Shown here piece after piece: positions 6,904-38,426 of a stretch of 64,000 nucleotides of DNA. The DNA is from Bifidobacteriaceae bacterium (GTDB lineage Bacteria; Actinomycetota; Actinomycetes; Actinomycetales; WQXJ01). The notes beneath the pieces are model-generated. The model saw nothing but the letters and a program-made list of their open reading frames with translations, was not told the origin of the DNA and made no database searches. Made by a program: the position numbers and the translations under genes. Each line of letters begins with the position of its first letter. The stretch's first letter is position 1. The stretch spans positions 4,310 to 68,309 of the forward strand of contig JAITJZ010000137.1 of the NCBI GenBank assembly GCA_031278655.1, read 5' to 3'.

Positions 6904-7036
6904 TGGCTGCCTTCCTGGCGCGAACCGGTTCAGCTTGCGATCCGTGGGAGCGGCGGGGCCGACGGCGTTCAACGCCGCCGGTCCCGCCCCTCGGACGCCG
7001 CTGGGCGACCGGTTCTAGTTGTGCTGACCGGGTGTC

Positions 7037-8344: not shown

Positions 8345-8411
8345 ATTGATCTCCTTGTCTTCGCTCGGTTCACGTGCTCGCGGATTTGTCGATCGGCCGC
8401 CGCCTCGGCGG

Positions 8412-9722: not shown

Positions 9723-9896
9723 CGTGTTTGACTCCTTTGTCACTGGTACGGCGCGAGGTCCACGCCTCAACATATCCTAACGTCCTGACACGTAAAGTCG
9801 TCAACATCTCGGCGAACGCGCTGGTAAAACGTGCCCAGATCGTTACAAAGCCTGCAAAGCCACGCCACGAGCGGCCTGTTTTCAGTCACTCATCAG

Positions 9897-9912
9897 GACA
9901 TGTCTGCTAGAC
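9897..9912. promoter_or_regulatory. Candidate HutC/GntR-type operator in a divergent promoter region
   Basis: GACATGTC (a perfect 8-bp palindrome) overlaps GTCTgctAGAC, 42-57 bp upstream of the dehydrogenase start. A GTCT..AGAC core is typical of HutC-subfamily operators, and a HutC-type GntR gene is in the same cluster. Confidence 0.3.
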
Positions 9913-9953
9913 TCGTCGCGTAATCGAGCCCAACATGAGGGAGAGCAAGGCCG

Positions 9954-17459: not shown

Positions 17460-18332
17460 CTACCGGGCGGCGGGGAACTCCTGGCGCAGGCGTTCCAGGA
17501 TGGCGGCGTTGGCTTGGTCGGCGGTCTCGTGCCAACCGAAGACACAGACAGAGAGCACGCCGTCGAAGCCGACCGCGCGCAGGGCGGCGAAGACCTCCTC
17601 CCAGGGGACCTCCCCTTGCCCAATGCGGTTGTGCTGGTGGACGCGCGCGTCCACGCCCGGCGGGTTGAGGATATAGCGGTTGCCGTCGTTAGCCCGGTGG
17701 TTGTACGAATCCGCGACGTGGACCTCGCGCAGCAAGGGGGCGGCGTCGCGGATCATCCGCCCGGCGTCGCCGGCGCCGTCCGAGAGATGGAATGTGTGCG
17801 GGCAGCAGTACTCGTATCCGATCCACGGCCGGTCCGCCCCGCGGACAACCGCGTAAGCGTCATCGTGACGTTCCACGAAGTCATAGGGGTGGGCCTCCAG
17901 GTTCAGCCGGATTCCATAGCGTTCGAAGACCGGGGCCAGCTCCTCGATGGAGCGGTACCACTGCTGCTCGCAGCGGCGCGGGGTGTTCGGGTCGCCGGAG
18001 AACTCGGAGGTGACCTCGCGGCAGTCGAGCTGGTCGGCCAGCTCGAGCAGGCGGCGCCAATTGCGGACCTGCGCCTGGCGTTCCGCCTCGTCGGCGCTGG
18101 ACCAGTCGAAAACCGGGTTCAAAGTGCGCACCCGCACGCCGGTTTCCTTTTGGGCGCGGTTCAACTCCGCCACAAAGGCGGCGTCGGCTTTCGGGTAACG
18201 GTGCCAGAAGTGGAACTCGGCGTTGGGTGACAACTCCACAAAACCGAACCCCAGCTGACGGGCCTTGTGCAGGGTCTGGGCGGTCGGCATCGTGCGGAAA
18301 TACATATTCGGGTCGAGCGCTATGTCCACCAT
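17460..18332 (-). CDS. Sugar phosphate isomerase/epimerase (xylose-isomerase-like TIM barrel), IolH-like
   Basis: MVDIALDPNMYF...FVELSPN...NLEAHPYDFVE...NPPGVDARVHQHNRIGQGEVPWEEVF resembles Bacillus IolH as I recall it. The track ORF 17460..19079 is run-through, and the true ATG is at 18332. Confidence 0.7.
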   Translation of the reverse strand: MVDIALDPNMYFRTMPTAQTLHKARQLGFGFVELSPNAEFHFWHRYPKADAAFVAELNRAQKETGVRVRTLNPVFDWSSADEAERQAQVRNWRRLLELADQLDCREVTSEFSGDPNTPRRCEQQWYRSIEELAPVFERYGIRLNLEAHPYDFVERHDDAYAVVRGADRPWIGYEYCCPHTFHLSDGAGDAGRMIRDAAPLLREVHVADSYNHRANDGNRYILNPPGVDARVHQHNRIGQGEVPWEEVFAALRAVGFDGVLSVCVFGWHETADQANAAILERLRQEFPAAR

Positions 18333-18349
18333 TGGTCTGCCCCGTCCGT

Positions 18350-19354
18350 TCAGGCGTACAACGCCGGTTTGGCGATCAGCTCGACCGGCTCCAGGCCGCC
18401 CGAGGCCAGCGCCCGCAGACCGGCGTCGCAAACCGCCGCGGCGGCGTAACCGTCCCAGGCGGTCGGGCCGGTCTGGCGGCCGGCCGCGACGGCGTTGATC
18501 CAGGCTTGCAGCTCGGCCGCGAAGGCCTGGCCGAAACGCTGGTTGTGGTCCGCCGTCAGCCGATGCCGCGCGCCGGCCGCGTCCCGCCGGACGGTCGCGC
18601 TCTGGTCCGCCAGGGCGACGGTCCCGGCCTCGAGGACGACCTCGCAGCGGATGTCGTAGGCGTACTGGATGTTGACGAAGACCTCGTCGTATGCGATCAC
18701 CCCCGACTCGGTGACCAGCGCCAACACCAGCGGATCGGCCAGGTGCGGGAACCGGCGGGAAGTCGGGCGCGGCTGGTCGACGCGGACGGCGGCGATCTCC
18801 TCGCCGAGCAGCCAGCGCATGGTGTCGATCTCGTGGATGGCGGTGTCGTTGATGGCCATGTCGGCGGTGTAGGACTGGGGCACGGTGGGGTTGCGGTGCC
18901 GGTTGTGGACTATCAGCGGGCGGCCGAGTTCGCCCGCCGCGATGGCCTCTTTGATCTCGTTGTAGCCGCGGTCGAAGCGCCGCATGAAGCCGACTGTGAC
19001 GACCTTGGCGCCGGCGCGGGCCTCGGCCTCCATGATCCGGACGCAGCCCGCCGCCGTCGGCGCCAACGGCTTTTCGCACAGAACCGGTTTGCCGGCGGCG
19101 ATGGCGGCGGTGACGGTGGCCTCGTGGGCGGGGCCGAAGCTGGCCACCAAGACCGCGTCGACCTCCGGCGCGGCCACCAGTTGCGCGTCGTCGGCGTAGA
19201 CCGCCGCGCCCAGCGGCGCCGCCACCCGTTCGGCCCTGGCTTGGTCGATGTCGTTGACGGCGGCGATCCGCCCGCCGGCGAGTTCCGTCCGGATGCGGGC
19301 GACGTGGGCCTGGCCCATCCCGCCGACTCCCACAATTCCAATGTTCACGGTCAT
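18350..19354 (-). CDS. iolG: Gfo/Idh/MocA-family oxidoreductase, inositol 2-dehydrogenase-like
   Basis: [18 protein letters not shown] is a Rossmann motif. Also [15 protein letters not shown] and [16 protein letters not shown] at 19354 follows AAGGAGA. Confidence 0.8.
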
Positions 19355-19434
19355 AGTTGTCTCCTTGTCGCAGTTGTCAGGGTTGTCGCGGTTGTCGCGG
19401 TTGTCGCGGTTGTCAGGGTTGTCGCGGTTGTCAT
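19351..19434 (-). other. Possible 27-codon Thr/Ala-rich upstream mini-ORF generated by the 9-bp repeat (hypothetical)
   Basis: Minus-strand ATG at 19434-19432, then (ACA ACC GCG/CTG)n, giving [27 protein letters not shown]. Its TGA (19353-19351) overlaps the iolG ATG (19354-19352) as ATGA. No convincing Shine-Dalgarno lies ahead of its ATG. Confidence 0.2.
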
Positions 19435-19458
19435 GATCGCGGTTGCCGCGGCCGTCAG
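19355..19458. repeat. Intergenic tandem 9-bp repeat (about 11 units of GTTGTCRSG) between iolE and iolG
   Basis: Read directly: agttgtctc cttgtcgca gttgtcagg gttgtcgcg x3 gttgtcagg gttgtcgcg gttgtcatg ... gttgccgcg gccgtcagg. Confidence 0.9.
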
Positions 19459-19481
19459 GCCGGCGGCGGCGGGCGGCGGCG

Positions 19482-20408
19482 TCACAGCTGGCCGAGCCCG
19501 CAGGTGGCCAGGAACTCGCGGGTGGCGATGGCGTTGGGCAGCGGGAAGGCCGGGTCGGCCGGGTAGAGGTCCTGCTCGCAGATGACGTAGAGCGGCTTGT
19601 TCAGACCCGCCAGGGCGTCGATCAGGAGTTTCATGTCCGGCTCGCCGGCCGGCGGGGTGACCGAGGCGCCGCGCGCGACCGCCTCCCCGAAGGGCCAGTC
19701 CTCGTCATGGGCCTGCTTGACCAGGGCCGGGTCGAAGGCCTTGATGTGGACGTAGGCGATCCGCTCGGGGTATTGGCGGACCATGGCGACCGGGTCGCCG
19801 CCGCCGTAGACGATGTGCCCGGTGTCGAGGCACAGATTGACGTAGTCCGGGTCGGTGGCGGCGAAAACACGGGCGATGTCGTCCGGGGTCTCGATGTGCG
19901 AGTCGCCGTGCGGGTGGAGCACCATTTTGAGACCGTAATCGTCCTTCAGCATGCGGCCGAGCCGGTTGGCGTTGTCGACGTAGAGACGCCAAGCCTCAGG
20001 CGTCAGCACGCGGTCGTCGGTGAACTCCCAGGTCTTGTCCGAGCGGAAAAGCGGCGGCAGGTGGACTATGTACTCCGCGCCGACCTCGGCGTGGACCTCG
20101 GCGATGGCGCGGAAGGTCTTCTCCGTCTCCGGCCAGGCCTCGGCCCGGTGCAAGATTCCCCAGCCCGTGCCCGCGACAACTCTGAAGCCGTGGGCGTCCA
20201 TGGCCCGCCGCAGAGCCTTCGGGTCTTTGGGGAAGTAGCCGAAGGGACCGGTCTCCATGACCGAGAAGCCCGCCTCGGCCATTTCCGCGAGCGCCTGTTG
20301 CCAAGGGATCTGTTTGTCGTCATCGGGAAACCAGACCCCCCACTGGTCGGGGCAGACGCCGATCGTCAAGTTGTTGTACGGGGCAATTGGGTTGAGTGCT
20401 TTGGTCAT
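19482..20408 (-). CDS. iolE: Inosose dehydratase-like TIM-barrel protein
   Basis: [45 protein letters not shown] parallels the IolE N-terminus (W..DD.P ... AGF.g.E.g.f.P). ATG at 20408 follows GAGGAA. The longer track ORF is run-through. Confidence 0.75.
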
Positions 20409-20509
20409 GGTTGTTCCTCTCGGTTGGTGAAACCGCCGCCCCGGGCGGGCGGCGCTGGCGGAGGCGGTCCCCCGGCCCGGCCGGGCGGCATCGGGCAGGG
20501 GGAAGGCGG

Positions 20510-22099
20510 TCAATCCCCGATGGCGCGGGAGTATTTTTGGCGGAACGCCAGCTCGAGCCGCTCCAAGCTGGCGCCTTTGGTCTCGGGGACGGCTTTGATG
20601 TAGAACACCAGCGCCACGATGTTGATCAGGCCGAAGGCCGCGTAGGTCGTGACCGGGCCAAGCCGGGAGATCATCACCGGGAAGGCGAAGGTGATGATGG
20701 CGTTGGTGACCCAGACGGCGGCCACGCCGACGCCCATGGCCGAGCCCCGGATCGAGGCCGGGTACAGCTCGGCCTGGAGCACCCACATGACGGTGCCGGA
20801 TTGTTTGACGAACACGAACACCGACACCAAGATCAGCACCAGCCAGGGCGCGTAGGCCGGGGCGCCGGCCAGGGCGCCGTCGCCGTCCAAGAACGGCGCG
20901 ATCCCGATGGCGAAGGTGGCGGCCAGCGCCAGGAGGCAGACCGAGACCCCGGCCTCTTGGTAGATGCCGACGTGGCGGCGGGCGAACTTGGCGATCAGGA
21001 TGAAGCCGATGGCGGACCCGACGAAGGACGCGGCGCCGGTGACAACATTGAGGCTGATCGAGTCCATGGATGAGAACCCGGCCGCCCGCAGGATTGTGGG
21101 GAGGTAGTACATGGCGGTGTTGATGCCGGTCAGCTGGTCGAAGACGCCAAGGCCCACGCCGATGAACAGGATGCGGCGAGTCCACCTGACGGCCAGCACC
21201 TGTCTCAGCGTCAAGCTGCGGCGGGCCTCTTGGCGGTGCAGGTCGACCATCTGGTCGATTTCCCCGGCGACGTCGTCTTTGGCGTCATCGCGCACCCGTT
21301 TGAGGCATCCGATCGCATCGACGAAGCGGAGGTTGGCGGCGTGCCAACGCGACGATTCCGGCATCATGCGCATCAGAATCCACAGCGCGACGGCCGGGAT
21401 GGTGGCCATCACCAGCATCCAGCGCCAGGTGGCGCCGTTGCCGCCGGCGACCACCAGGCCGTCGATGGACCCAAGGACGTCCCAGGAGACTTCCTCGCCG
21501 GGCTGGTAAACGCCGCTCGGGTCGTGTTCGACGACCGCCGCCGGGCCGCCCGTCCCGCGGGCGATGGCCGCGTTCACGCTGTAGGCCAGCAACTGCCCGC
21601 CAACGATCATGAACTGGTCGATCGCCACCAGCGGCCCGCGAATGCGGGCCGGGGCGGTCTCCGAGAGGTAGGCCGGAACCGTCGCCGCGGCCCCGCCGAC
21701 AGCGAATCCGAGCACCAGCCGCGCCGGGTAGAGAACCCATAAGCTCGGCGCCAGCGAGCAGCCCAGCGCTCCCACCAGGAACACGATCGCCAGCAGCAAG
21801 ACATTGTGGCGCCGCCCGTAGCGGTCCGAGAGCCGCCCGCCGAAGAACGCGCCGAAGGCGGCGCCGACCGCGATCAGGCCGCCCACCAAGCCGGTCTCGA
21901 CATCGTTCAGCCCCAGGCCGCCGCCCGCTTGGGGCAGGTTCAGATACGGCAACGCGCCGGCGATGACGCCGGTGTCGTAGCCGAACAGCAGCGATCCCAG
22001 CGTCACGGCCGCCGCGATGAATCCCAGCGATCGCCGTTTGCCAGAGGCGGGGGTGGCGGCCACAAGCGCTCGAACTTCTTCCTGAGTCGGCGTCGACAT
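20510..22099 (-). CDS. MFS sugar-porter family transporter (inositol/sugar:H+ symporter-like)
   Basis: LLFGYDTGVIAGAL, GGRLSDRYGRR and PAYLSETAPARIRG are sugar-porter signatures, plus PESSRW and a second 6-TM half. Confidence 0.85.
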   Translation of the reverse strand: MSTPTQEEVRALVAATPASGKRRSLGFIAAAVTLGSLLFGYDTGVIAGALPYLNLPQAGGGLGLNDVETGLVGGLIAVGAAFGAFFGGRLSDRYGRRHNVLLLAIVFLVGALGCSLAPSLWVLYPARLVLGFAVGGAAATVPAYLSETAPARIRGPLVAIDQFMIVGGQLLAYSVNAAIARGTGGPAAVVEHDPSGVYQPGEEVSWDVLGSIDGLVVAGGNGATWRWMLVMATIPAVALWILMRMMPESSRWHAANLRFVDAIGCLKRVRDDAKDDVAGEIDQMVDLHRQEARRSLTLRQVLAVRWTRRILFIGVGLGVFDQLTGINTAMYYLPTILRAAGFSSMDSISLNVVTGAASFVGSAIGFILIAKFARRHVGIYQEAGVSVCLLALAATFAIGIAPFLDGDGALAGAPAYAPWLVLILVSVFVFVKQSGTVMWVLQAELYPASIRGSAMGVGVAAVWVTNAIITFAFPVMISRLGPVTTYAAFGLINIVALVFYIKAVPETKGASLERLELAFRQKYSRAIGD

Positions 22100-22171
22100 C
22101 GTGAATCCATTCCCCGGCGGTCATCGCCGGTCCGGTCAGGCGGGCGCCAGCGCCCGCTTCAGCTATTTGAC

Positions 22172-22200
22172 TAGAGCGCTCTACTAGAGCGCGCTACTAG
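22172..22200. promoter_or_regulatory. Candidate operator: perfect 12-bp palindrome TAGAGCGCTCTA plus an adjacent near-copy, just downstream of a TTGACA -35-like hexamer, upstream of the MFS gene
   Basis: The sequence is ctagagcgctcta ctagagcgcgcta ctag. On the gene strand a TTGACA (22229-22224) and a TAACCT/TGTAAC -10-like element sit immediately upstream. The central A-N-CG-N-T is LacI-operator-like, and a LacI gene ends the same gene string. Confidence 0.4.
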
Positions 22201-22321
22201 GTTACAGCCAACGTCACCGGCTTTGTCAAGACAAATTCACCAGGAATTTCCGAAGCCCGCCCATCCCGGGTCCGCCCCCCAAACCCTCGCCCCCCAACGG
22301 CATCGGCGGGCGTCACCGCGC

Positions 22322-23221
22322 TCACCGCGCGTCGCGGCCCTCGAAGGGGCACGGGGGCAAGGTCCACGAGCGCTCGTCAGTGATTGAGAACAGCTCGCGG
22401 CGGCGCTTGATGCGGGCACGCTCTCCCGCCGGATCGGGGCTCGGCACGCAGGCCAGAAGCTCCTGGGTGTAAGGGTGGCTGGGAGATTCGACCACCGCCG
22501 CAGTCGGTCCGGCCTCCACGATCTGACCGCCGTACATGACGATCACGGAATGGCAAGTCTGGGCGACTACCGCCAAGTCGTGGGAGATCAGGATGTAGGC
22601 GGTCTGAGTCTCACGCTGGATTCTGGCCAACAGCTCAAGGATCTCCGCCTGAATGGTGACGTCGAGCGAAGACACCGGCTCGTCGAGGGCGATGAACTCC
22701 GGCTTGAGCATCAGCGCGCGAGCGATCGCTATGCGCTGGCGCTGGCCGCCGGAGAACTCGTGCGGGAAGCGCCCCAAGACGCTTTGCGGCAGGTAGACCT
22801 CGTCCAGGACCTCTCGCACGCGCTCGCGGGCGTCCATCTTGGCGCCGGTCACGATCAGGGGTTCGCGCAGCAGGTCGCTGACCGTCATGCGGGGGTCGAG
22901 CGACGAGTACGGGTCCTGGAAAACCACGCCGATGCGCCGCCAGAACGCCCGCCTGGCCGCGCGGTCGCGGTAATCGAGGGCCGACCCCTCAAAGTAGACC
23001 GCGCCGCCAGTCGGCTCATACAGCCCGAGCACGGTGCGCAGCAACGTCGTCTTGCCGGAGCCGGATTCGCCGACGATGCCCAGGGTCTCGCCGCCCGTCA
23101 ACTCGAAGGAGGCGCAGCAGACGGCGTGAATGGTGTGACGGCGCTGGAACAGCCGATGGGTCTGGAAGTGTTTGGTCAGCCGGTCGACCCGAAGGAGGCT
23201 GCCTCCACCCGGAACGGTCAC
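22322..23221 (-). CDS. Oligopeptide/dipeptide-type ABC transporter ATP-binding protein (OppF/DppF-like)
   Basis: GIVGESGSGKTT is Walker A, FSGGQRQRIAIARAL is the signature motif and FIALDEPVSSLD is Walker B. An Opp-type C-terminal extension is present. The GTG start overlaps the upstream stop. Confidence 0.9.
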   Translation of the reverse strand: MTVPGGGSLLRVDRLTKHFQTHRLFQRRHTIHAVCCASFELTGGETLGIVGESGSGKTTLLRTVLGLYEPTGGAVYFEGSALDYRDRAARRAFWRRIGVVFQDPYSSLDPRMTVSDLLREPLIVTGAKMDARERVREVLDEVYLPQSVLGRFPHEFSGGQRQRIAIARALMLKPEFIALDEPVSSLDVTIQAEILELLARIQRETQTAYILISHDLAVVAQTCHSVIVMYGGQIVEAGPTAAVVESPSHPYTQELLACVPSPDPAGERARIKRRRELFSITDERSWTLPPCPFEGRDAR

Positions 23222-25104
23222 GGTCCGCCCCGCCTCTCCAGCCGGGGGATCTTCGCCAACAGGGAGCGGGTGTAGGGGTGGCTCGGGTGGGCGAACAGAG
23301 AGTCGGCGTCCGCCGACTCAACAACCAAGCCATCTTTCATCACCACAACCCGGTCGACCAATCCGGCCACCAGCGCCAGATCGTGCGTGATGAACACCAT
23401 CGCGGCGCCGACCGACGCGCGGGCCTCTTCGAGGGTGTCAAGGACGCGGGCTTGGACGGTCACGTCAAGGGCGGTGGTCGGCTCGTCCGCGATGATCAGC
23501 TTGGGCTGGGCCACAATTGCCAGGCCGATGACGACCCGTTGCCGCATGCCGCCGGACAGCTCGTGCGGGTACTGGTACAGCCGTTGGCCGGGGTTGTTGA
23601 TGCCGACGCGCTCCAGTATTTCCGCCGCCCTTCGCTTCAACTCCTGATCAGCCAGCTTCTCCGAGCTGAGGGCCTGCATGGTCTCTTTGAAGTGGTGGAA
23701 GACAGTCAGCACTGGGTTCAGGCTGGTCATCGGGTCTTGCAGGATGATGCTCACTTTGCGGCCGCGCACCGTCCGCCACCCGGCGTAGTCCAAGCCCGTC
23801 AACGCCTGGCCGTCAAAGGTGATGGAGCCGCTGACTTGGGCTCCGGCCGGGAGCAGGCCGACGACCGAAGACACCGTCATCGTCTTGCCGGAGCCGGATT
23901 CGCCCACCAAAGCCACAATCTCGCCGGGGGCGAGCCGCAGCGACAGATCGTCAACGGCCACAACTCCCTCTCGGGGGAACTCAACCCGAAGGTGCTCGAT
24001 CTCGAGCACCGGCCCGGCCGCGGCCAAAGCGCCCGCGCCTGGCGGGTCCGCCCCGGCCGGCCCGTCCGCGGGCTCCGCCGCGAGCGCGACCCGCGCCGGG
24101 TCCGGATCGACCGCCGCCGCTGGCGCCTTCGACCGCCCGCCACCCGCCGCAGACCTGCGCCGGGCGCGTTTGCCCAGGTAATTGTTGGTGGCGCGGTGAG
24201 GATTGAGGGCTTGGCGGAGCGACTCGCCCAAGAAGTTGATCGCCAGCACGAAGACGATGATCGCCAGGCCGGGGAAGTAGAACGTCCAAGGCCGAGTCAT
24301 GGCCGAGTCCTTTGCGTTCGACACCAGCAGACCCAGGGACGTGTCGGGCGCGCGGATGCCAAAACCGAGGAACGACAATCCGGACTCAGCCAGCACCGCC
24401 GTGCCGACCAGCAGTGTCACCGAAACGATGACCTGGTCCAGAACGTTCGGCAGGACGTGGCGGACCATGATTCTCAGGTTCGAAGACCCCATCAAGACGG
24501 CCGCGTCAACATACAACTCGCCCCGGATCGCCGTTGACACCCCTCTGACCAGCCGGGCCATCGAGGTCCACAAGAGCGCCGCCAGCACCAGCGACAGCGT
24601 CAGCGTGGAGACACCGACGCCCGACAGCCGAGAACCGAGGAAGCTGGCCAACGCCATCGACGGAATGGTCAGGATCAGGTCGACGACGCGCATGATGACG
24701 CTGTCGACGCCGCCCCCTTTGAAACCCGCCAGCATGCCGCCGATGACGCCCAGCAAGGTCGCCGGGACCGCCACCATGAAGGCGATCGACAGCGACTGCC
24801 GCAAGCCGCGCAGAACCAGGGCCAGCATGTCGTGGCCGAGCACGTCTGTGCCGAACGGGTGCGTCGGGGACGGCGGCTGCGTCGGATCAGGGGTGATGTC
24901 GGTGTAGCTGTAGGTCCAGACTGGACCGAGGATGGCCGCCAACACCATCATCAGGACGACTGCCAGCGAGACGATGGCGACCGGGTTGCGCCAGAAGCGG
25001 CGCCTGGCCACAGCCCATGACGACATCGACCGCCCCTGGGCGCGGCGCCCCGGCCGGCCGGGGACGGGCTGGGCGTCAGCGACGCGGGCCTCGAAGTCAG
25101 ACAT
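23218..25104 (-). CDS. Fused ABC transporter permease (DppC/OppC-like) and ATP-binding protein (DppD/OppD-like)
   Basis: The N-terminal roughly 300 aa has an OppC_N-like start (FWRNPVAIVSLAVV) and permease helices. An Ala/Pro/Gly-rich linker follows. Then LVGESGSGKT, LSGGMRQRVVIGLAI and IIADEPTTALD. Confidence 0.85.
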   Translation of the reverse strand: MSDFEARVADAQPVPGRPGRRAQGRSMSSWAVARRRFWRNPVAIVSLAVVLMMVLAAILGPVWTYSYTDITPDPTQPPSPTHPFGTDVLGHDMLALVLRGLRQSLSIAFMVAVPATLLGVIGGMLAGFKGGGVDSVIMRVVDLILTIPSMALASFLGSRLSGVGVSTLTLSLVLAALLWTSMARLVRGVSTAIRGELYVDAAVLMGSSNLRIMVRHVLPNVLDQVIVSVTLLVGTAVLAESGLSFLGFGIRAPDTSLGLLVSNAKDSAMTRPWTFYFPGLAIIVFVLAINFLGESLRQALNPHRATNNYLGKRARRRSAAGGGRSKAPAAAVDPDPARVALAAEPADGPAGADPPGAGALAAAGPVLEIEHLRVEFPREGVVAVDDLSLRLAPGEIVALVGESGSGKTMTVSSVVGLLPAGAQVSGSITFDGQALTGLDYAGWRTVRGRKVSIILQDPMTSLNPVLTVFHHFKETMQALSSEKLADQELKRRAAEILERVGINNPGQRLYQYPHELSGGMRQRVVIGLAIVAQPKLIIADEPTTALDVTVQARVLDTLEEARASVGAAMVFITHDLALVAGLVDRVVVMKDGLVVESADADSLFAHPSHPYTRSLLAKIPRLERRGGP

Positions 25105-26086
25105 GGCCGCTCCGACGCATCCTGGGGTCGACGAACCGGTAGAGGATGTCGGTCAAGAGGTTGAAGATCACCACCGCCGAGGCGGACACCAGCAGCCAGC
25201 CGAGGACGGTGTTGACATCCGAGCGCCGCAAGGCGTCTAACAGCAGCGCGCCCATGCCGTTCCACTGGAAGACCGTCTCGGTGATGATCGCCCCCGAGAA
25301 CAGGCCCGGCAGCTCCAACCCGATGATGGTGATCAGCGGCACCAGGCTGGGCCGGATCACGTGGGAACGCATGACCACCCCGCGGGGAAGGCCGCGCAGA
25401 ATGGCGTACTTGACGTGGTCGGCGTCGAGTTGGTTGATTGTGGCGGTGCGTTGGTACCTGGTCCAAGACGCCAGGTGCACCAGGATCAAGACGATCGTCG
25501 GCAGGATCAGGTGGCCGGCCAGGTCCCCCAGATGGCCCCAGAATCCCTTGATCGGGGGCACTGACTGATAGCCGACGGTGTAGAAGATGCGGTAGCCGCT
25601 GGTCTGGTTGATCCAAATGCCGGCCTGTTTGAGCAGCACGGCCATCCAGAAGCTCGGCAGCGACAGCAGCACGAAGGCGCCGAAGGTCAGCGTCAGGTCG
25701 GGGAATCTGCCTTGTTTGAGGCCTGAGACCAGTCCCGCCAGGACGGCCAGGACGATGGCGACGATCATCGCCACTATCACCAGGCGCAGTGTCACGATGA
25801 CGCGTTCGCCGAGTTCTGAGGCGATGTTCAGAGTTGGAGAGACAGAGGGGCCGAAGTCGCCGGTCAGGACGCCGGTGATCCAGTTGACGTAGCGTTTGGG
25901 CAGAGGCAGGTCAAGCCCCAGCCGGTGTTCCTCGGCGGCGATGACCGACTCGCTGACGGGCGGGTCCTGCTGCCTCATCTCCGCCAACGGGTCCCCGGCC
26001 AGCGACACCAGCAAGAAGATCAACACCGACGACGCGAACAGGACAGCCAGGCTGTTGAGCGCCCTGACGGCGATGCCGCGAACCAC
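25097..26086 (-). CDS. ABC transporter permease (DppB/OppB-like)
   Basis: 329 aa beginning (V)VRGIAVRALNSLAVLFASSVLIFLLVSLAGDP, a typical DppB N-terminus. GTG at 26086 is preceded by AGGAGGAGG. Confidence 0.9.
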   Translation of the reverse strand: MVRGIAVRALNSLAVLFASSVLIFLLVSLAGDPLAEMRQQDPPVSESVIAAEEHRLGLDLPLPKRYVNWITGVLTGDFGPSVSPTLNIASELGERVIVTLRLVIVAMIVAIVLAVLAGLVSGLKQGRFPDLTLTFGAFVLLSLPSFWMAVLLKQAGIWINQTSGYRIFYTVGYQSVPPIKGFWGHLGDLAGHLILPTIVLILVHLASWTRYQRTATINQLDADHVKYAILRGLPRGVVMRSHVIRPSLVPLITIIGLELPGLFSGAIITETVFQWNGMGALLLDALRRSDVNTVLGWLLVSASAVVIFNLLTDILYRFVDPRMRRSGHV

Positions 26087-26168
26087 GCTTGCCTCCTCCT
26101 AGCGATCTCGTCTGGTTGTCGCTTTGCCAACATGAGCCGGGGCGGCGCCCATCTTCGGCCAAAAGAAC

Positions 26169-27683
26169 CTAGTCATAGAAACTGGGCTCGACGGGTCGAA
26201 CGCGACCCCAATGCCACCACGGCACCGAGTGGTCGAGTTGGTCGGACCAGCCGAAGAAGCGTTTCGAGTAGGGGTAGTAAGTGCCGTACCAAAACAACGG
26301 CACCCATTCGACATCGTGCGCCCAGACGTCTTGGAGCCGGCGATAGATCTCCCCGCGCTCGGCCTTCGACAAGGTGGTGCGGCCGGCCTGGTAGAGCTGG
26401 TCGACAACGCGATTGCGGTGGCGGCCAAGGTTGGCGGGGCCGCCGCCACTGGTGTACTTGTTAGCGGTGACCTCCGGGTCCGGCGACATCCCGCCGCCGA
26501 CGATGAACAGGTCGAAGTCCGCGTCGGCCCCGCCGATGACGCTCTTCCATTCGACCGAACTCAGCCCGACCGCTTGAGCGGCGATGCCGACCCGCGCCAA
26601 GGCGGCGCAGACCTCTCGGGCCAAGACCCGATGTGAGTAGAACATTTGCATGAAGAACACAGTTGTGGTCATGCGTGTGCCGTCGGGGCTGCGGGCGAGT
26701 CCAGCTTCGTCGAGCAGCCGGTTCGCCAAGACCGGATCGTGCCCGGGCGCCTTCGCCTCGGCGTTGAAGGCCCACGGCACCGACTTGATCCAGTAATGGT
26801 CCCAAGGCTCGGCCACCCCCGGGTCGGCCAACGGCCCGAACTTCGAGCGGTCCACCGCCGCCGCCACGGCCCGGCGCACCCGCTGGTCGTCCCAGGGCGC
26901 CTTGGCGTGGTTGAAGTCGAGCAGGGCCATCCCCGGGCCGGGCTTGCGGTCCAATCTGACCACCGCCTCAGAGCCCCGGACCAGGTCCAACCGGTCGTAA
27001 GTGAGCGTGTCCTGCGGCACGCAGTCGGCTTCGCCGCGGCAGACCATGGCGACGCATTCGTCGCGGTCGGGCACAACCCTGATGGTGATCCTGTCAATCT
27101 CCGGGCGCGCGCCCCAATGGTCCTTGACGGCCTCCAGCTCGATGCGCTCGCCCGGCGCCCACTCCACGAACCGGAACGGCCCCGACCCGATCGGTTTCAG
27201 ATTGTGCGGGTTGGTCGCCCAATCGGTGCCCTCGTAAAGATGCGCCGGCAGGACATGGGTGAAGATGAAGTTCCCGAGCTGCGTCAGGAAACCGGCGTTG
27301 GGCTCGCTCAGCCAGTAGTCGACGGTGTGGCGATTGACCTCGGCCACCCGCGCCACAGAACTGAGAAAACGGCCCGCCTCGTAGCCCTTGGCTATCGCCT
27401 CGCCATGAGTGTAGGCGACGTCGTGGCTGGTGACTGGCGTGCCGTCATGCCACCGCGCGGCCTGGTTGAGATGGAAGCGGTATCTGGCGGCCCCGTCAAG
27501 GATCTCCCAATGTGTGGCCAGGTCAGGGAACGCCACCGGGTTGTACCATTCGTTGAGCACCACCCGGTTGTAGATGTTGTTGCACACCAGATAGCCGGCC
27601 GAGCCGGTGTAGTTGCGGTAACAGTCGTTGAACTCGACCGCGTCGATTGGTGTGGCGACGACGAAATGCCGTGAATCGCGCAC
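26169..27683 (-). CDS. Family-5 (OppA/DppA/NikA-type) solute-binding-protein homolog WITHOUT signal peptide, paralog 2
   Basis: Aligns along its length with the neighbouring paralog (EFNDCYRNYTGSAGY..NIYNRVVLNEW..PDLATHWE..ARWHDGTPVTSHDV..PIGSGPFRF..). The best start is the GTG at 27683, 10 nt after the upstream stop. The in-frame upstream extension of the track ORF (to 28043) overlaps the previous gene and is Arg/Ser/Pro-rich, not a signal peptide. Confidence 0.8.
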   Translation of the reverse strand: MRDSRHFVVATPIDAVEFNDCYRNYTGSAGYLVCNNIYNRVVLNEWYNPVAFPDLATHWEILDGAARYRFHLNQAARWHDGTPVTSHDVAYTHGEAIAKGYEAGRFLSSVARVAEVNRHTVDYWLSEPNAGFLTQLGNFIFTHVLPAHLYEGTDWATNPHNLKPIGSGPFRFVEWAPGERIELEAVKDHWGARPEIDRITIRVVPDRDECVAMVCRGEADCVPQDTLTYDRLDLVRGSEAVVRLDRKPGPGMALLDFNHAKAPWDDQRVRRAVAAAVDRSKFGPLADPGVAEPWDHYWIKSVPWAFNAEAKAPGHDPVLANRLLDEAGLARSPDGTRMTTTVFFMQMFYSHRVLAREVCAALARVGIAAQAVGLSSVEWKSVIGGADADFDLFIVGGGMSPDPEVTANKYTSGGGPANLGRHRNRVVDQLYQAGRTTLSKAERGEIYRRLQDVWAHDVEWVPLFWYGTYYPYSKRFFGWSDQLDHSVPWWHWGRVRPVEPSFYD

Positions 27684-27693
27684 GCGCGGCCCC

Positions 27694-29190
27694 TCACGCC
27701 TCGACCGGCCGGATGCGGCCCCAATGCCAGAACGGCACCGAGTACTGCAACTGGTCGGCCCAGCCGAAGAACCGCGGGCTGCGCGCGAAGTAGTGGCCGT
27801 ACCAATAGCACGGCACGAAGGCGACATCGTCAGCCCACAACCGTTGCAGGCGTCTGAACAACTCACCGCGCCTGGCCTGGTCGACCGTGACCTGGGCGGC
27901 CTCGAAGACGGCGTCAACCTCCGGATTGGAGTAGCCGGTCCAGTTGCCGACGCTGGTCGACGCGTAGCGAGCCGCCAGCACACCCGGGTCGGGCGCCATG
28001 CCGCCGCCGGACACCACGAAGTCGAAGCGCCCGGCGCCGTCAACGACGGCCTTCCACTCCGGCGACCGCAACGCCACCACTTCAGCCTCGATGCCGACGG
28101 CGCGCAGCTGGCGGGCCAAAGGACCGGCGATGTCGCCGTGCCAGCCGAAAGTGTGCATGTAATAGAGCTTCATCCGGTGGCGAACGCCGTCCGCGCCCCG
28201 GGGCAGTCCCGCCTCGTCCAGCAGCCGCTCGGCGGCGGCCACGTCCAGGCCGGGGGCGCTCACAGACTCATCGAAGGCCCAGGCCACGTTGGGGATGAGG
28301 TAGTGGTCCCAGGACCGCGACACGCCTTCGTCGAACAGTTTCGCGTCGAAAGCCCGCCGATCCATGACCTGAGCGATGGCCTGGCGCGCCACCAACTGGC
28401 CCCAAACAGGATGCCGGTGGTTGAACTCGATCCGAGCCATGCCGGCGCCGCGCTGCGCCGTCACGCGGAACTTGGCCGGGTCGAAGCCGTCCAGCAGATG
28501 CAATCGGTCGAAGGTGAGCACATCTTGCACCATGTAGTCGGCGTCGCCGCGGGCGACCATGCGCACGCCCTCGTCGAGGTCTTCCACGACTATGAGTTCG
28601 ACGCGGTCCACCAACGGGCCGGGGCCCCAGTGGCCTTTGACCGCCTCCATGACGACGTTGCCCCCCGGTGTCCACTCGGCCACCCGGAAAGGCCCGGAGC
28701 CGACCGGGTCTTGGTTGTGCGGATTGGTCGCCCAATCGGTGCCCTCATAAAGATGGGCGGGCAGGACGTGCGCGGTGATGAAATTGCCGAGCTTGGTCAA
28801 GAAGGCGGCGTCGGGACGTCTCAGCACGTAGTCGACAGTGTGCTGGTCGACCTCGACGATCTCTTCGACATCGGCGAAGGACGCCGCCGCCTGGTAGCCC
28901 TTCGCCACCTGCTCGCTGTGCGTGAAGGCGACGTCGTGCGCCGTCACCGGGACGCCATCGTGCCACCTGGCGGCGTGGTTGAGGTAACACCGGTAGACGC
29001 GGGCGGCGTCTATGACTTCCCAATGGGTGGCCAGGTCGGGGTAGACAACCGGGGAATCCCATTCGTGCAGGACCACGCGGTTGTAGATGTTGGCCGAAAC
29101 GATGTATCCGGCCGAGCCGGTGACATTGCGATAGGCGTCGTTGAATTCAGTGGTGCCTTGGTCGGTCACCACTCGAAAGGTGCTGGTCAC
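27694..29190 (-). CDS. Family-5 solute-binding-protein homolog WITHOUT signal peptide, paralog 1
   Basis: Begins (V)TSTFRVVTDQGTTEFNDAYRNVTGSAGY, entering the conserved SBP_bac_5-type core at once. GTG at 29190 follows AGGAGAG. Only 78 nt separate it from the upstream stop, so there is no room for a leader peptide. Confidence 0.85.
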   Translation of the reverse strand: MTSTFRVVTDQGTTEFNDAYRNVTGSAGYIVSANIYNRVVLHEWDSPVVYPDLATHWEVIDAARVYRCYLNHAARWHDGVPVTAHDVAFTHSEQVAKGYQAAASFADVEEIVEVDQHTVDYVLRRPDAAFLTKLGNFITAHVLPAHLYEGTDWATNPHNQDPVGSGPFRVAEWTPGGNVVMEAVKGHWGPGPLVDRVELIVVEDLDEGVRMVARGDADYMVQDVLTFDRLHLLDGFDPAKFRVTAQRGAGMARIEFNHRHPVWGQLVARQAIAQVMDRRAFDAKLFDEGVSRSWDHYLIPNVAWAFDESVSAPGLDVAAAERLLDEAGLPRGADGVRHRMKLYYMHTFGWHGDIAGPLARQLRAVGIEAEVVALRSPEWKAVVDGAGRFDFVVSGGGMAPDPGVLAARYASTSVGNWTGYSNPEVDAVFEAAQVTVDQARRGELFRRLQRLWADDVAFVPCYWYGHYFARSPRFFGWADQLQYSVPFWHWGRIRPVEA

Positions 29191-29222
29191 AGAGTGTCTC
29201 TCCTATTGGTGCGCCCCAGAGC

Positions 29223-29253
29223 GCCGCCGCGACCCACGAGGGGCCGCGGCGGC
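29223..29253 (-). terminator. Intercistronic GC hairpin (possible partial terminator or mRNA-stabilising element) after the lipoprotein SBP gene
   Basis: GCCGCCGCG-N13-CGCGGCGGC is a perfect 9-bp stem, 15 nt after the SBP stop at 29268. There is no clear U-tract. Confidence 0.35.
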
Positions 29254-29267
29254 GGCAACAGGGATTG

Positions 29268-30986
29268 TCATCTGAGGTAGCCCCAGTTGTTGATGTTCCA
29301 CGTCAAGCCGTACTTGCTCATCGACGGTTGCAGGCCGGCGAAGTCCTGCGAATGGATGAGCACGTTGCCGATCGAGTAGAGCGGCAAGGCGATCGCCTCG
29401 CTCAGCAGCATATTGTCCATCTCTTGAAGGATCCGGATCTGCTCGGCCGGGTCCAGGGCCACGTTGCCCTCCGCCACTAGCGCGTCGAACGCCGCGGACG
29501 AGTAGCCGGAGCCGTTACGGGCCTTGCCGGTGCCGTACCACTGGTCGAGAGCCTGCACGCCCAGGTCAGAAGCGGTCGCAGTGATCAGGATGTCAAACTT
29601 GCCGGCAAAGCCGTCGGTGCCGTAGCGGGTGTTGTCGGCCGCGTCGATCGTCGTCTCAATGCCAATGGCCTTGAGCTGGCTGTTGAGGATTTCAGCCATC
29701 TGCATGCGCTCAGTGTCGGCCGAGTAGGTCAGGATCGTCAACGGGCGCAGCGCCTCGCCGCTGGGCAGGTGCAGCTTCTCGTCCGTGATGGTGTAGCCCG
29801 CGTCGGCCAGAGACTTCTTGGCGCCCTCGACATCGCCCTGGCCCACGTTCAACGCCTTGGCGGCGTCGACGTACGGGTCGCCATCGTAACCGCTGTAAGC
29901 CTGGCCGGGGGCGAACGCCAGCGAGCCGAGCACCGGCGCCTCCGGGTCGTACTGCCTTGGGATCCGGGTGACGAAGTCAGAGGCGTCGATCGCCTGCGCC
30001 ACGGCCTTGCGCAGCGCCGCGTCAGCGAGCCCGTCGCCAACCGCCTTGAAGATGAGATGGTAATAGGTCAGGCTGCTGGCGATCTCGACCGAAGACCCCT
30101 CGATGGCGTTGGCCTTCTCGACCGTCTCCAGCGACGGATTCTGGTAGACGATGGTGACCTCGCCGTTCTGGTAGGCCGTGATGACCTCGCTCGGCGACGT
30201 GATGTAGCGGTAGTGGATAGTGTCGAGATGCGCCGGGCTGCCGTACCATTTCTCGTTCTTGACCATGGTCAGAGAGACATCGGCCTCGAACTCCGAGATG
30301 ACGTAGGGGCCGCCGGAGACCACCGGCTGATTGTTGACGAACCCATCATTGAAGGAGGTCGCCAGGTCGCCGTAGTCGCTGGCGACATGCGACGGCAGGA
30401 GGGTGATGAACAGCGTCTTCCACATTGAGAATGGCGTGTCGAAGACCGCCGTGACGGTGAGCTTGTCATCCGAGGCGGTCAATGTCATCGAGTCGTAACC
30501 GGCCGTCCAGGCGGCGGTGCAATCCGCGCATTGGCGCGGGTCCTGAACCGACCAGGTGTAAAAGAAGTCGTCGGCGTCGATCGCCTCGCCGTCTGACCAG
30601 ACCGCGCCGGATTTGATCTTGTAGACCACTGTCATCGGGTCCTCGCTGGTGACCTCTGCGGATTCCATCAAGTCCGTGTTGAGTTGGAGGGCCCCGGCGT
30701 AGTCGCCGTAGAAGACATGGGGGTAGAACGGCCACTGCGCCTGCCGGTTGCCGGTGGTGTCGCCTTGCGCCGTCAACGGGTTCCAACTCTTCGGGGTGGA
30801 GATGAACCCGGCGAAGACGGCCTCGCCGCCGTCCTTGACTCCCGTCGACTCGTCGCCCGAAGACGTCGGAGCGCCGGTTTGGTCGCCGGAGTCTTCATCG
30901 AGGGGTGCGCAGGCGATCATGGCCACCGATAACGACAGGGCCAACGCTCCGACCGCCAAGGTCTTGCCACTGAAATAACGCTTCAT
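29268..30986 (-). CDS. Family-5 peptide/oligosaccharide ABC transporter substrate-binding lipoprotein
   Basis: MKRYFSGKTLAVGALALSLSVAMIACAPLDEDSG is a signal peptide plus lipobox Cys. The SBP_bac_5-like body is about 570 aa. I prefer the ATG at 30986. The track start is the TTG at 31004. Confidence 0.9.
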   Translation of the reverse strand: MKRYFSGKTLAVGALALSLSVAMIACAPLDEDSGDQTGAPTSSGDESTGVKDGGEAVFAGFISTPKSWNPLTAQGDTTGNRQAQWPFYPHVFYGDYAGALQLNTDLMESAEVTSEDPMTVVYKIKSGAVWSDGEAIDADDFFYTWSVQDPRQCADCTAAWTAGYDSMTLTASDDKLTVTAVFDTPFSMWKTLFITLLPSHVASDYGDLATSFNDGFVNNQPVVSGGPYVISEFEADVSLTMVKNEKWYGSPAHLDTIHYRYITSPSEVITAYQNGEVTIVYQNPSLETVEKANAIEGSSVEIASSLTYYHLIFKAVGDGLADAALRKAVAQAIDASDFVTRIPRQYDPEAPVLGSLAFAPGQAYSGYDGDPYVDAAKALNVGQGDVEGAKKSLADAGYTITDEKLHLPSGEALRPLTILTYSADTERMQMAEILNSQLKAIGIETTIDAADNTRYGTDGFAGKFDILITATASDLGVQALDQWYGTGKARNGSGYSSAAFDALVAEGNVALDPAEQIRILQEMDNMLLSEAIALPLYSIGNVLIHSQDFAGLQPSMSKYGLTWNINNWGYLR

Positions 30987-31122
30987 CACATTCTTTCTGC
31001 TCAAGGGGTTACGAGGTTGCTAGGTGCCAAATCACGAAGGGCTGCTTTGCCGCATCGGTCGGCCCCAGTCCGTTGTGCCAGCGCAAGCCGGACACAAGCC
31101 ATTGTGGCGTGGAGCCTTGGTC

Positions 31123-31152
31123 AGTATTCTGCACGGCCCGCGGGCCTGTCAA
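31123..31152 (-). promoter_or_regulatory. Candidate sigma-70-type promoter for the Opp-like operon (TTGACA-N18-AATACT) with palindrome GGCCCGCGGGCC in the spacer
   Basis: Minus strand reads TTGACAGGCCCGCGGGCCGTGCAGAATACT, about 135 nt upstream of the SBP start. Confidence 0.3.
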
Positions 31153-31268
31153 ACGCCCGGGGGCGGGCGGCATCGTCCCCGGACGCGCTCTGCGCCGCTC
31201 AGCGGATCAGTCGGCGCTGGTGGCGCGAGCTGGCCTGCTGGCTGGCGGCTGGCGGACGTCGCCGGGCT

Positions 31269-32075
31269 TCACACGTGAGCGTTGAGCCAGGCCAGCGTGT
31301 CGCCGATGACCTCGTCCTTGCGGATCTCGTTGAAGATCTCGTGCATCAGCCCGGCGTAGACGCGCAGCGACTTGTCCTCCGAGCCGATCTCGCCGAAGAA
31401 CTCGCGCGAGTCGAGGTTCGAGACCAGCGCGTCCAGGCCGCCGTGGAGGATCAGCGTGGGCGCGACGAACGCCGCCGCGTTCGCCTTCAGGTACTCCAGG
31501 CCGCCCGCGAACGAGTTGCACAGGCCGAGCGAGATCTGCTTCTCCACGTACGGGTCGTTGACGTAGGCCTCGATCACGGCCGGGTCGGAGCACACCCCGG
31601 CGCCCAACTCATTCGGGACGTACGTGTGCGGGTCGCCGGGCAGCGGGATGGGGCCCATGACTTGGTTGTTGTACCTGGTCAGCGCCCCGGAAAAGACAAT
31701 TCCCGCAGCCTTGTCCGGGTACTTGGTTCCGAACAGCGCCGACGCGTAGCCACCCATCGAGTGCCCGATCAGGTAAACCGGCAACCCGGGCAGCTCGCCC
31801 GTGGCCACCTCGAAGGCGGCGTTGACGTCATCCACGATCTCGGTGAAGTCCGAGTAGTAGACCCGCTCGCCCTTGGACCGTCCGTGGCCCCGATGGTCGA
31901 ACCGGAACACCGCGTAGGCCTGCGCCGCCAGCCGCGCCGCCAGGTAGTCGTAACGGCCCTGATGCTCGGCCAACCCGTGGACTATGACGGTCAGCGCTTT
32001 GGGGTTGGTGGGGACCTCCAGTTTGGCGTACAGCTCAGTGCCGTCGAAGGAGGGGAAAGTGAGTTCTCTGGACAT
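31269..32075 (-). CDS. Alpha/beta hydrolase (lysophospholipase/monoacylglycerol-lipase-like)
   Basis: HGLAEHQGRYDYLA, the nucleophile elbow GHSMGG, and a C-terminal LMHEIFNE (His region). Confidence 0.8.
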   Translation of the reverse strand: MSRELTFPSFDGTELYAKLEVPTNPKALTVIVHGLAEHQGRYDYLAARLAAQAYAVFRFDHRGHGRSKGERVYYSDFTEIVDDVNAAFEVATGELPGLPVYLIGHSMGGYASALFGTKYPDKAAGIVFSGALTRYNNQVMGPIPLPGDPHTYVPNELGAGVCSDPAVIEAYVNDPYVEKQISLGLCNSFAGGLEYLKANAAAFVAPTLILHGGLDALVSNLDSREFFGEIGSEDKSLRVYAGLMHEIFNEIRKDEVIGDTLAWLNAHV

Positions 32076-37454: not shown

Positions 37455-38426
37455 TCAGCGGACCACCGGGAACTCGGGGGCGGTGACGTCGATGGCGTTC
37501 ACATTCGGCTCTTTCAGCAGCACTTCGACCGCCGCCGCCTTCAGCGCCCCGTTGGACGAGTCGCCCCAGGCCACGACCACGCCTCCGGCCAGGGTCAGGG
37601 TGACGGTGTCCTCGGTCTCCGCGCCCAGGCTGGCCACCTGCGCGGTCAACCATTCGGGCAGGGACGCCGCCACGCGCAGCACCGATTCGACGGTGCGGCG
37701 ATTGCCGTCCGTCAGCGGCACCGCGATGATCGGCAGCCCCTGCGGCGGCTGGTCGACCCGGATGACCACGGCGGCCTCCGCGTCCAGCAGGACATATTCG
37801 GCGCCGTCCTGGACCGCCGCCGCCGCGCGACGCGGCTCCAGGCGCACCGTCAGGCCGGTCGGCCAGGCCCGCTCAACGCTGGCGGCCTTGATCGGGGTGA
37901 GTTCCAACAGGCGCGCCTCGATCTGGGACGGGCTGACACGCACCAGCGGCACGCCCACCTCCTTGGCCAGCACCCGTGAGACCTCGGCCCGGTCGATCCA
38001 ACCGCCGAGCCCATTGATCTCGATGTCGCCGGCGCGGACGGCGAACACCGGTGACAACCACAGCAGCGCCGCCGCGCCCGCCAGGACCACAGCCGGCGCC
38101 GCCCAGCGCGCCGCCCGCTGGAACGCGCCCCAGCGTGCCGCCCGCCGGCGCGCCTTGAAGGCGGCCTGGGTGCGGCTGGCGGCCAATTCGGCCGGGCTCG
38201 GGCCGCTGGCGGCCCGGCCCGCGGCCAGTTCCGCGCCGCCCCGGCCGGCGGCCACGAGGCGCCCCGCCAAGCCGCCGCCGGGTCCCGCCCGCCTGATGCC
38301 AGCGATCCCCCCTGCGACCCGGGTGACCTCTGCGACCCCTGCGACCTCTGCGACCCCGGCGCCGCCGCCCGGCGCCGCGGCCGCGTTGGCCGGCGGGCCG
38401 AAGCCCAGCCACGCGCCCATCCCCAT
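37455..38426 (-). CDS. ftsQ: Cell division protein FtsQ (POTRA domain)
   Basis: Low-complexity N-terminus, one TM segment (PAVVLAGAAALLWLSPVF), then a POTRA-like stretch VRAGDIEINGLGGWIDRAEV. Position after murC fits. The ATG at 38426 overlaps the murC stop. Confidence 0.8.
   Translation of the reverse strand: MGMGAWLGFGPPANAAAAPGGGAGVAEVAGVAEVTRVAGGIAGIRRAGPGGGLAGRLVAAGRGGAELAAGRAASGPSPAELAASRTQAAFKARRRAARWGAFQRAARWAAPAVVLAGAAALLWLSPVFAVRAGDIEINGLGGWIDRAEVSRVLAKEVGVPLVRVSPSQIEARLLELTPIKAASVERAWPTGLTVRLEPRRAAAAVQDGAEYVLLDAEAAVVIRVDQPPQGLPIIAVPLTDGNRRTVESVLRVAASLPEWLTAQVASLGAETEDTVTLTLAGGVVVAWGDSSNGALKAAAVEVLLKEPNVNAIDVTAPEFPVVR
38312..38356. repeat. In-frame 9-bp repeat inside ftsQ (encodes VAE/VAG triplets)
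   Basis: CTGCGACC recurs at 38312, 38330, 38339 and 38348. The protein reads GVAEVAGVAEVTRVAGG. Confidence 0.8.

Follow-up and report, generated by a model that had tools for sequence, protein, structure and literature searches.

The canonical receptors of Dpp/Opp/Nik-type ATP-binding cassette (ABC) importers, such as DppA and NikA of Escherichia coli, NikZ of Campylobacter jejuni and CtaP of Listeria monocytogenes, are exported solute-binding proteins (SBPs) of family 5, and annotation practice treats SBPs as extracellular receptors. When an operon of the PepT-type transporter class encodes a cytoplasmic protein, the common pattern is that of a cargo-processing enzyme, as seen for DdpX (E. 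coli ddpXABCDF) and for the D-aminopeptidase of the Bacillus subtilis dpp operon. In a 64,000-nucleotide stretch of DNA from a Bifidobacteriaceae bacterium (contig JAITJZ010000137.1, positions 4,310 to 68,309; hereafter the window), two tandem genes of an importer operon encode paralogs, homologs 1 and 2, that have the Pfam family and the three-domain fold of these receptors but carry no export signal. Very probably, the two proteins are cytoplasmic and functional and act on a small molecule. We propose, with a probability of about 0.4, that cargo processing in their module is catalysed by these proteins, perhaps working as a pair, a receptor paralog having been turned into a catalyst.

The SBP fold is found in other roles as well. 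NasS, the SBP5 domain of SgrR and the THI5/NMT1 enzymes are cytoplasmic SBP-fold proteins with non-transport roles, and LpqW of Mycobacterium smegmatis (PDB 2GRV), which is among the PDB matches of the exported partner described below, shows that a family-5 SBP can also take on a task unrelated to transport. Unlike the window homologs, LpqW is an exported lipoprotein encoded outside importer operons. In a survey of SBP repertoires, about 1% of the proteins matching SBP Pfam models were cytosolic with other functions, AmiC being cited (PMC9602780); this amide sensor uses the SBP fold inside the cell, as we propose for the homologs. An earlier note on this DNA, made from the sequence alone, had called family-5 SBPs extracytoplasmic by definition, which is too strong in view of the SgrR domain and of this cytosolic 1%. 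In Synechocystis, the iron-binding SBP paralogs FutA1 and FutA2 belong to one ABC system, and one is reported to be the periplasmic receptor and the other to be mainly intracellular (PMC6254336). A signal peptide is predicted for FutA1, whose localisation is debated. This pair belongs to a different SBP class, whereas homologs 1 and 2 are wholly leaderless. AmiC, NasS and THI5 fall into other SBP clusters than the homologs, which belong to cluster C. In SgrR the family-5 domain is fused to an N-terminal DNA-binding domain, whereas the homologs stand alone and begin right at the first strand of their fold. Both are matched by the NCBIfam SgrR model, but over residues 45-213 only. The genes of AmiC, NasS, SgrR and THI5 do not lie between receptor and permease in a PepT-type importer operon. 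Cytoplasmic SBP-fold proteins are thus already known, and what appears to be new is a stand-alone leaderless family-5 clade inside PepT-type importer operons, of which we found no description in a literature search that left most subscription journals outside.

The operon lies in a stretch of about 66% G+C and consists of six minus-strand open reading frames (ORFs), the SBP5 lipoprotein gene being the first (Table 1). The ORF listing and Pfam searches on all six genes bore out the gene order, strand and coordinates claimed before. The genes are spaced by 77 nt, 10 nt and 82 nt, and then overlap by 8 nt (DppB gene and fusion gene) and 4 nt (fusion gene and DppF-like gene); the leaderless genes are, as claimed before, co-directional with the transporter genes, and they are tightly spaced with them. 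Homologs 1 and 2 are indeed paralogous, with 54% identity over 495 residues, and each is about 24% identical to the lipoprotein SBP. PF00496 was the only Pfam domain detected in them (194.8 and 215.5 bits, the gathering cut-off being 32.4).

Export signals were sought in both homologs by hydropathy, lipobox and arginine-pair (RR) pattern scans, and these revealed no Sec, Tat or lipoprotein signal and no membrane anchor. The KD19 hydropathy maximum is 2.14 in the leader of the lipoprotein (residues 9-27) versus 0.93 and 1.45 anywhere in the two homologs, whose longest apolar runs within the first 40 residues are VV and FVVA. Homolog 1 starts at a GTG (29190) behind the AGGAGAG ribosome-binding site (RBS) that had already been pointed out. 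An in-frame TAG (29203-29205) lies five codons upstream of this GTG (up=4 for this gene in the comparison of loci), and therefore no in-frame N-terminal extension of homolog 1 is possible. Homolog 2 starts, again as claimed, at a GTG (27683) located 10 nt past the stop of homolog 1, with GAGGGG ahead of it. The sole ambiguity that would favour a mis-called start is a longer TTG ORF of homolog 2 (to 28043), but this is an out-of-frame read across homolog 1 that holds no hydrophobic stretch, and the homolog 2 orthologs P0008, P0009 and P0023 have the identical start position. The nearest in-frame stop lies 0-7 codons ahead of the aligned start in at least 20 independent related genes. We inspected the N-termini of the 120 best database homologs. 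The 98 closest (38-88% identity; 489-526 aa except two fragments) include not one signal peptide and all open with MxxxF(V/I)VxxPxDAxEFN(D/E)xYRN, within the first strand of the fold, while from P0099 onward every match has a Sec, lipoprotein or Tat-like leader. A mis-called start or hidden leader was rejected on the basis of these upstream stops and of the N-terminus common to the 98 homologs.

Decay of the genes was rejected as well. When the window was compared with two independent contigs of identical gene order (L072, L073), the ratio of nonsynonymous to synonymous substitution rates (dN/dS) showed purifying selection: homolog 1 gave 0.09-0.13, homolog 2 gave 0.12-0.17, and the transporter genes gave 0.08-0.19. 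The family is present in at least four bacterial phyla, and intact reading frames were seen in four. Together with the upstream stops and common N-terminus described above and a structural model that is confident throughout (see below), these values make it extremely improbable that the missing leaders are an artefact of start calling, of a frameshift or of drifting pseudogenes. The earlier note was therefore right that both proteins are truly leaderless, and two of the findings that it had named as speaking against its reading, a hidden leader and pseudogene decay, were looked for and not observed. The leaderless SBP is in fact the best conserved component of the module: across orders and phyla its identity amounts to 61-63%, while the exported SBP reaches 46-49% and permeases and ATPases reach 51-58%.

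The family is small and sharply delimited. Among 1.84 billion representatives at 50% identity, the leaderless clade has five members, and the scores of this search then drop from 320 to 238 bits, the latter being that of leader-bearing proteins. The leaderless set was monophyletic when placed in a neighbour-joining tree together with its 64 closest SBP5 relatives that have a leader, so the conserved clade that the earlier note had proposed to look for does exist. As the arrangement recurs in the independent contigs L072 and L073 and in loci L033-L041, it is far beyond chance. At present the databases annotate all members either as "ABC transporter substrate-binding protein" or as "peptide/nickel transport system substrate-binding protein". 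No plasmid-borne annotated member was found, the only plasmid matches being canonical SBPs at about 31% identity; the exported partner had no match there.

A leader-bearing SBP is present beside the leaderless one in every transporter-linked locus, which would suit the idea that the leaderless proteins are ordinary extracytoplasmic receptors exported without a signal of their own, for instance by Tat hitchhiking on their partner. The partners have lipoboxes in all Actinobacteria and type-I signals in Alphaproteobacteria. About half of the actinobacterial partners also carry an RR pair in the n-region (e.g., TRRLSLV, SRRLVV), as such hitchhiking would have it, but none of the alphaproteobacterial partners does, and in the window the partner carries KR instead, with a lipoprotein signal of the Sec type. 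Some loci hold neither a transporter nor a partner, and no hydrophobic or otherwise recognisable signal occurs at any place in the leaderless proteins, whose composition is far from that of the exported partners (His 4.3 vs 1.05%, Trp 3.2 vs 1.4%, Arg/Lys 3.5 vs 0.9). Cysteine content was also considered as a marker of location and proved uninformative, with about 2.7 per protein in leaderless and exported sets alike. Hitchhiking is thus improbable. Because every member is without an export signal, because transporter-free loci exist and because many partners have no RR pair, a cytoplasmic role is by far the likeliest. We infer this location from the absence of any signal, and ligand binding in the cleft and catalysis, discussed below, are likewise predictions.

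A scan that took one genome per species yielded 63 loci. The actinobacterial hosts of the family are Micromonospora, Dactylosporangium, Stackebrandtia, Streptosporangium, Microbacterium, Leucobacter, Phytoactinopolyspora and Propionibacteriaceae; the alphaproteobacterial ones are Devosia, Martelella, Pelagibacterium and Rhodobacteraceae. In both groups the module usually reads divergent MocR-type regulator, leader-bearing SBP, leaderless SBP, DppB and DppC-DppD fusion, the last sometimes being DppC-DppD-DppF, with 0-2 further leaderless copies after it. PepT-type permease/ATPase genes lie beside the leaderless SBP in the window and in about 40 loci. The DppC-DppD fusion is found in every ABC-carrying locus of the set L001-L041 plus L063 (Actinobacteria, Alphaproteobacteria), and two more distant loci, L007 and L043, have unfused Dpp genes with an AsnC regulator or none. 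In Chloroflexota and in one metagenome-assembled genome (MAG) of Acidobacteria, 1-2 leaderless copies occur with no ABC genes nearby (>20 loci). The conserved neighbourhood that the earlier note had also proposed to look for is therefore real for the importer operons of Actinobacteria and Alphaproteobacteria but does not extend to these last lineages. Since the leaderless SBP is found with fused Dpp genes, with unfused ones and with no ABC genes at all, it appears to be independent of ABC docking, and this argues against the former suggestion that its role is tied to the fused permease-ATPase.

The Alphaproteobacteria and one Microbacterium resistens assembly have a single DppC-DppD-DppF protein of 875-896 aa (L002/L003, 12503-15130; L005, 12490-15180; L023-L031), and in a second M. 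resistens assembly (L010) DppC-DppD and DppF are separate ORFs, which may be a strain difference or a frameshift. The whole module including MocR is common to Actinobacteria (L010-L022) and Alphaproteobacteria (L023-L031), with the leaderless SBP at the 61-63% identity given above, and this points to horizontal transfer between phyla. The taxonomic labels of the MAGs are inconsistent: P0268, a protein 100% identical to the window lipoprotein, is labelled Bifidobacteriaceae, and the closest genomes, L008 and L009 (72-76%), are labelled Propionibacteriaceae. In Thermomicrobiales the stand-alone leaderless SBP is followed, at a distance of 0.4-2 kb, by an EamA-family transporter, an uncharacterised protein of about 318 aa without any Pfam match and a protein with a CpXC domain (L047, 7992-10734; L053, L057, L059-L062 and L064, of which L057 has no EamA match). 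A functional link to these genes, seen in 7-8 loci, was considered and set aside; we treat them as lineage synteny, given this variable spacing and the close relatedness of the loci.

About 30 loci have the divergent MocR-type regulator beside the module, of which it is, apart from the leaderless SBP, the only conserved soluble cytoplasmic protein. This proximity, together with the cytosolic precedents of AmiC (PMC9602780) and of the SBP5 domain of SgrR, would be consistent with a cytoplasmic sensor of the AmiC/NasS type that controls the MocR regulator or, by trans-inhibition, the transporter. The regulator is inconstant, though: it is MocR, AsnC, HxlR or none depending on the locus, and no MocR is present in the window or in its closest relatives L008, L009, L072 and L073. 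MocR proteins have an effector domain of their own, no ANTAR-type partner was found in any Pfam-annotated neighbourhood, and the fold is of cluster C rather than cluster-B or NrtA-like. As transporter-free loci exist, trans-inhibition in particular is disfavoured, and we regard a sensor function as quite unlikely. An all-against-all clustering of neighbouring ORFs, noisy from shadow ORFs in the high-GC DNA, detected no conserved catabolic enzyme beside the module, or anything beyond MocR.

The AlphaFold2 (AF2) model of homolog 1 has a pLDDT of 90.5 and a pTM of 0.86, with no segment below pLDDT 50. It shows a cluster-C SBP fold, and Foldseek aligned it with CtaP, NikZ, CcNikZ-II, DppA and AppA at TM 0.8-0.86 and about 20% identity. 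No solved structure of the leaderless family was found, the best PDB match being CtaP (E=1e-32). The residues that anchor the ligand in the described receptors are absent. The DppA peptide anchors R383 and D436 correspond to a deletion and to an invariant Gly (in an alignment of about 22% identity); as for the NikA chelate anchors, R97 and W398 are opposite gaps, Phe takes the place of R137 and the H416 column is variable. The NCBIfam NikA model scores 78-92 bits on the homologs, against a cut-off of 393. Peptide or nickel-chelate specificity of the leaderless proteins was rejected on the absence of these DppA and NikA anchors. Clade-conserved columns that align with NikA/EppA pocket residues are T24, Y29, Y99, F137, G396 and N416, and a 19-residue clade-specific motif, H(V/I)LPxHLYEGTDWxTNP(H/Y)N, with invariant H141, H146, T151, W153 and N156, begins four residues past the NikA Arg137 column.

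A clue to the cargo comes from the exported partner. The window lipoprotein can be aligned along its whole length with PDB entries 6WM6 and 6WM7 (E=6e-81, residues 36-570 on 31-561). These entries are EppA, the periplasmic EDTA (ethylenediaminetetraacetate)/aminopolycarboxylate-binding protein of Chelativorans sp. BNC1, whose pocket was defined by docking and mutagenesis as the four cationic residues R56, R74, K470 and R480, plus N69, Y460 and S462 (PMC7312458). From its sequence, the partner is not a peptide receptor but resembles EppA and is of the aminopolycarboxylate type. Arg74 is the only one of these pocket residues that the window partner keeps: S stands for R56, D for N69, and A for each of Y460, S462 and K470. 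Across 37 partner SBPs, R74 is invariant, N69 has become an invariant Asp and S462 an invariant Ala, whereas the columns of R56 (S/N/A/V/G), Y460 (G/A) and K470 (S/A, S in most) vary. R480 corresponds to A in a pairwise HMMER alignment, but its position is uncertain because the multi-sequence mapping is shifted at 479-481, and an invariant Arg lies nearby. With these pocket residues replaced, the cargo of the partner must differ from that of EppA, and the less cationic pocket with its added acidic residue suggests a zwitterionic amino-carboxylate rather than EDTA.

The Epp locus of Chelativorans sp. BNC1 is like the window operon in its PepT-type transporter class and in the full-length homology of EppA to the lipoprotein. 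Unlike the window operon, it lacks a leaderless SBP, has unfused permeases and a fused double ATPase, and encodes oxidases as well as EmoA, EmoB and IdaA-like catabolic enzymes. Genes for EmoA, EmoB and IdaA are absent from the window and from the related loci. An EppA-like locus of Amycolatopsis is a plain SBP-DppBCDF operon. A RidA (Ribonuc_L-PSP) gene adjoins both the Epp locus, directly before eppA (L076, 9371-9721), and the alphaproteobacterial leaderless-SBP modules, directly after the module in Pelagibacterium/Devosia loci (L002, 15135-15497). These RidA neighbours hint at an imine or enamine intermediate in the catabolism of the cargo.

Taken together, we favour the following model. 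The export signal would have been lost once, in a monophyletic family-5 SBP-fold lineage. The EppA-like lipoprotein would capture a zwitterionic or aminocarboxylate-type cargo outside the cell, and DppB, the DppC-DppD fusion and DppF would carry it across the membrane. The leaderless paralogs would then receive the imported cargo in their conserved inter-domain cleft and process it, thereby holding the slot that DdpX, the B. subtilis D-aminopeptidase and EmoA/EmoB (epp operon) hold in their operons. An enzyme is favoured because the conservation exceeds that of the ATPases, because an invariant polar motif lies near the predicted cleft and because the protein occurs on its own in some lineages. 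It is favoured further by the make-up of the module, which amounts to a regulator, a receptor, a translocator and one conserved soluble cytoplasmic protein, as in the DdpX and EmoA/EmoB pattern.

Several points weigh against a catalytic role. To our knowledge there is no family-5 SBP-fold enzyme. The copy number of 1-3 is usual for receptors, and a protein that binds several partners could be just as highly conserved. The cleft position of the invariant residues rests on alignments of about 20% identity. In two pocket columns the exported partner has Asp and Arg where the leaderless clade has Thr and Tyr, and therefore the partner and the leaderless proteins may recognise different molecules.

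Some of these features would also suit a non-catalytic intracellular acceptor, buffer or chaperone, which would bind the cargo (perhaps a chelator-like aminocarboxylate or metal chelate), keep its free concentration low and hand on the cargo or the metal. The Venus-flytrap fold is complete with a conserved cleft, the genes are placed between receptor and permease, the paralogs are multiple as is typical of binding proteins, and the leaderless proteins are rich in His and Trp. If the cargo resembles that of EppA, free aminopolycarboxylates would be expected to strip metals from the cytoplasm. We regard such an acceptor as nearly as plausible as the enzyme, and as attractive if the cargo is chelator-like. 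Against it, no established example of such a component is known to us from ABC importers, more than 20 Chloroflexota/Acidobacteria loci have no transporter nearby, conservation above that of the ATPases is unusual for a mere binder, and the NikA metal-chelate anchors are absent. The roles listed by the earlier note (SBP-fold enzyme, sink or chaperone, sensor) are still the right ones, and they can now be ranked, with the enzyme as the leading candidate.

Table 1. Features of the importer operon and candidate regulatory sites in the window.
Feature	Positions	Strand	Remarks
SBP5 lipoprotein	29268-30986	minus	PF00496 E 4e-55; leader + lipobox MIAC; EppA-family member
Leaderless SBP5 homolog 1	27694-29190	minus	498 aa, GTG start; PF00496 E 3e-57
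Leaderless SBP5 homolog 2	26169-27683	minus	504 aa, GTG start; PF00496 E 2e-63
DppB/NikB-like permease	25097-26086	minus	BPD_transp_1 + BPD_transp_1_N (Pfam)
Fused DppC-like permease/DppD-like ATPase, 628 aa	23218-25104	minus	OppC_N + BPD_transp_1 + ABC_tran + oligo_HPY (Pfam)
DppF-like ATPase	22322-23221	minus	ABC_tran + oligo_HPY (Pfam)
Sigma-70-like promoter candidate TTGACA-18-AATACT	31123-31152	minus	upstream of lipoprotein SBP gene; consensus match only
13-bp G+C-rich hairpin, no U tail	29223-29253	minus	between lipoprotein gene and homolog 1
RBS AGGAGAG of homolog 1	29198-29204	minus	overlaps in-frame TAG 29203-29205

The promoter candidate of Table 1 is the sole promoter-like site in 21900-31400 (0.6 expected in shuffles). 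No terminator-like site was found between the operon genes on the coding strand, the single minus-strand match being located within homolog 2, and such matches are rarer than in shuffled sequence. The 91-nt region that holds the hairpin has a folding energy of -43.4 kcal/mol (z = -2.7). We infer that this hairpin is an mRNA stabiliser or partial attenuator, of a kind common after SBP genes, and it could make expression of the receptor differ from that of the genes downstream. For the DppB-like permease the top NCBIfam models were the nickel-type Opp2B, Opp1B and NikB, each under its cut-off. Downstream of the operon, the minus strand of 17460-22099 encodes an MFS sugar transporter (20510-22099) and two xylose-isomerase-like TIM-barrel proteins (19482-20402 and 17460-19079); this is probably an unrelated sugar locus, as the inspected related loci do not have these genes beside the module. 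The window's only Rfam match is the mraW RNA motif at 51236-51343 of the minus strand (52.7 bits against a gathering score of 50), and the dcw (cell-division/cell-wall) cluster therefore begins there, on the minus strand. The 64-kb window yielded no tRNA genes, and its G+C content is 62-64% at 6001-10000 versus 73-76% at 38001-44000.

The observation made in the earlier note has held, but it had missed that the leaderless proteins form a multi-phylum family, that they are the most conserved component of the module and that their exported partner is EppA-like. Tentatively, and with more doubt than for the enzyme itself, cytoplasmic receptor paralogs may be an unrecognised class of PepT-module component, serving as first-step catalyst or as inner-face cargo acceptor in a relay, and freed from transporters in Chloroflexota. 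As the family is small and well delimited and occurs in the cultivable Microbacterium resistens, Micromonospora, Devosia and Martelella, the question is directly testable. If the proteins are cytoplasmic, SBP labels are wrong for a family spanning four phyla, and transport models drawn from such operons miscount receptors. The locus would then offer a clear example from nature of a receptor fold put to new use in the cytoplasm, beside its own transporter, useful for understanding how a binding protein evolves into an enzyme or a sensor, and it could point to a class of cargo related to natural aminopolycarboxylates or opine-like chelators and to the fate of that cargo after import. The family would provide either the first family-5 SBP-fold enzyme or a relay between an outside receptor and an inside one.

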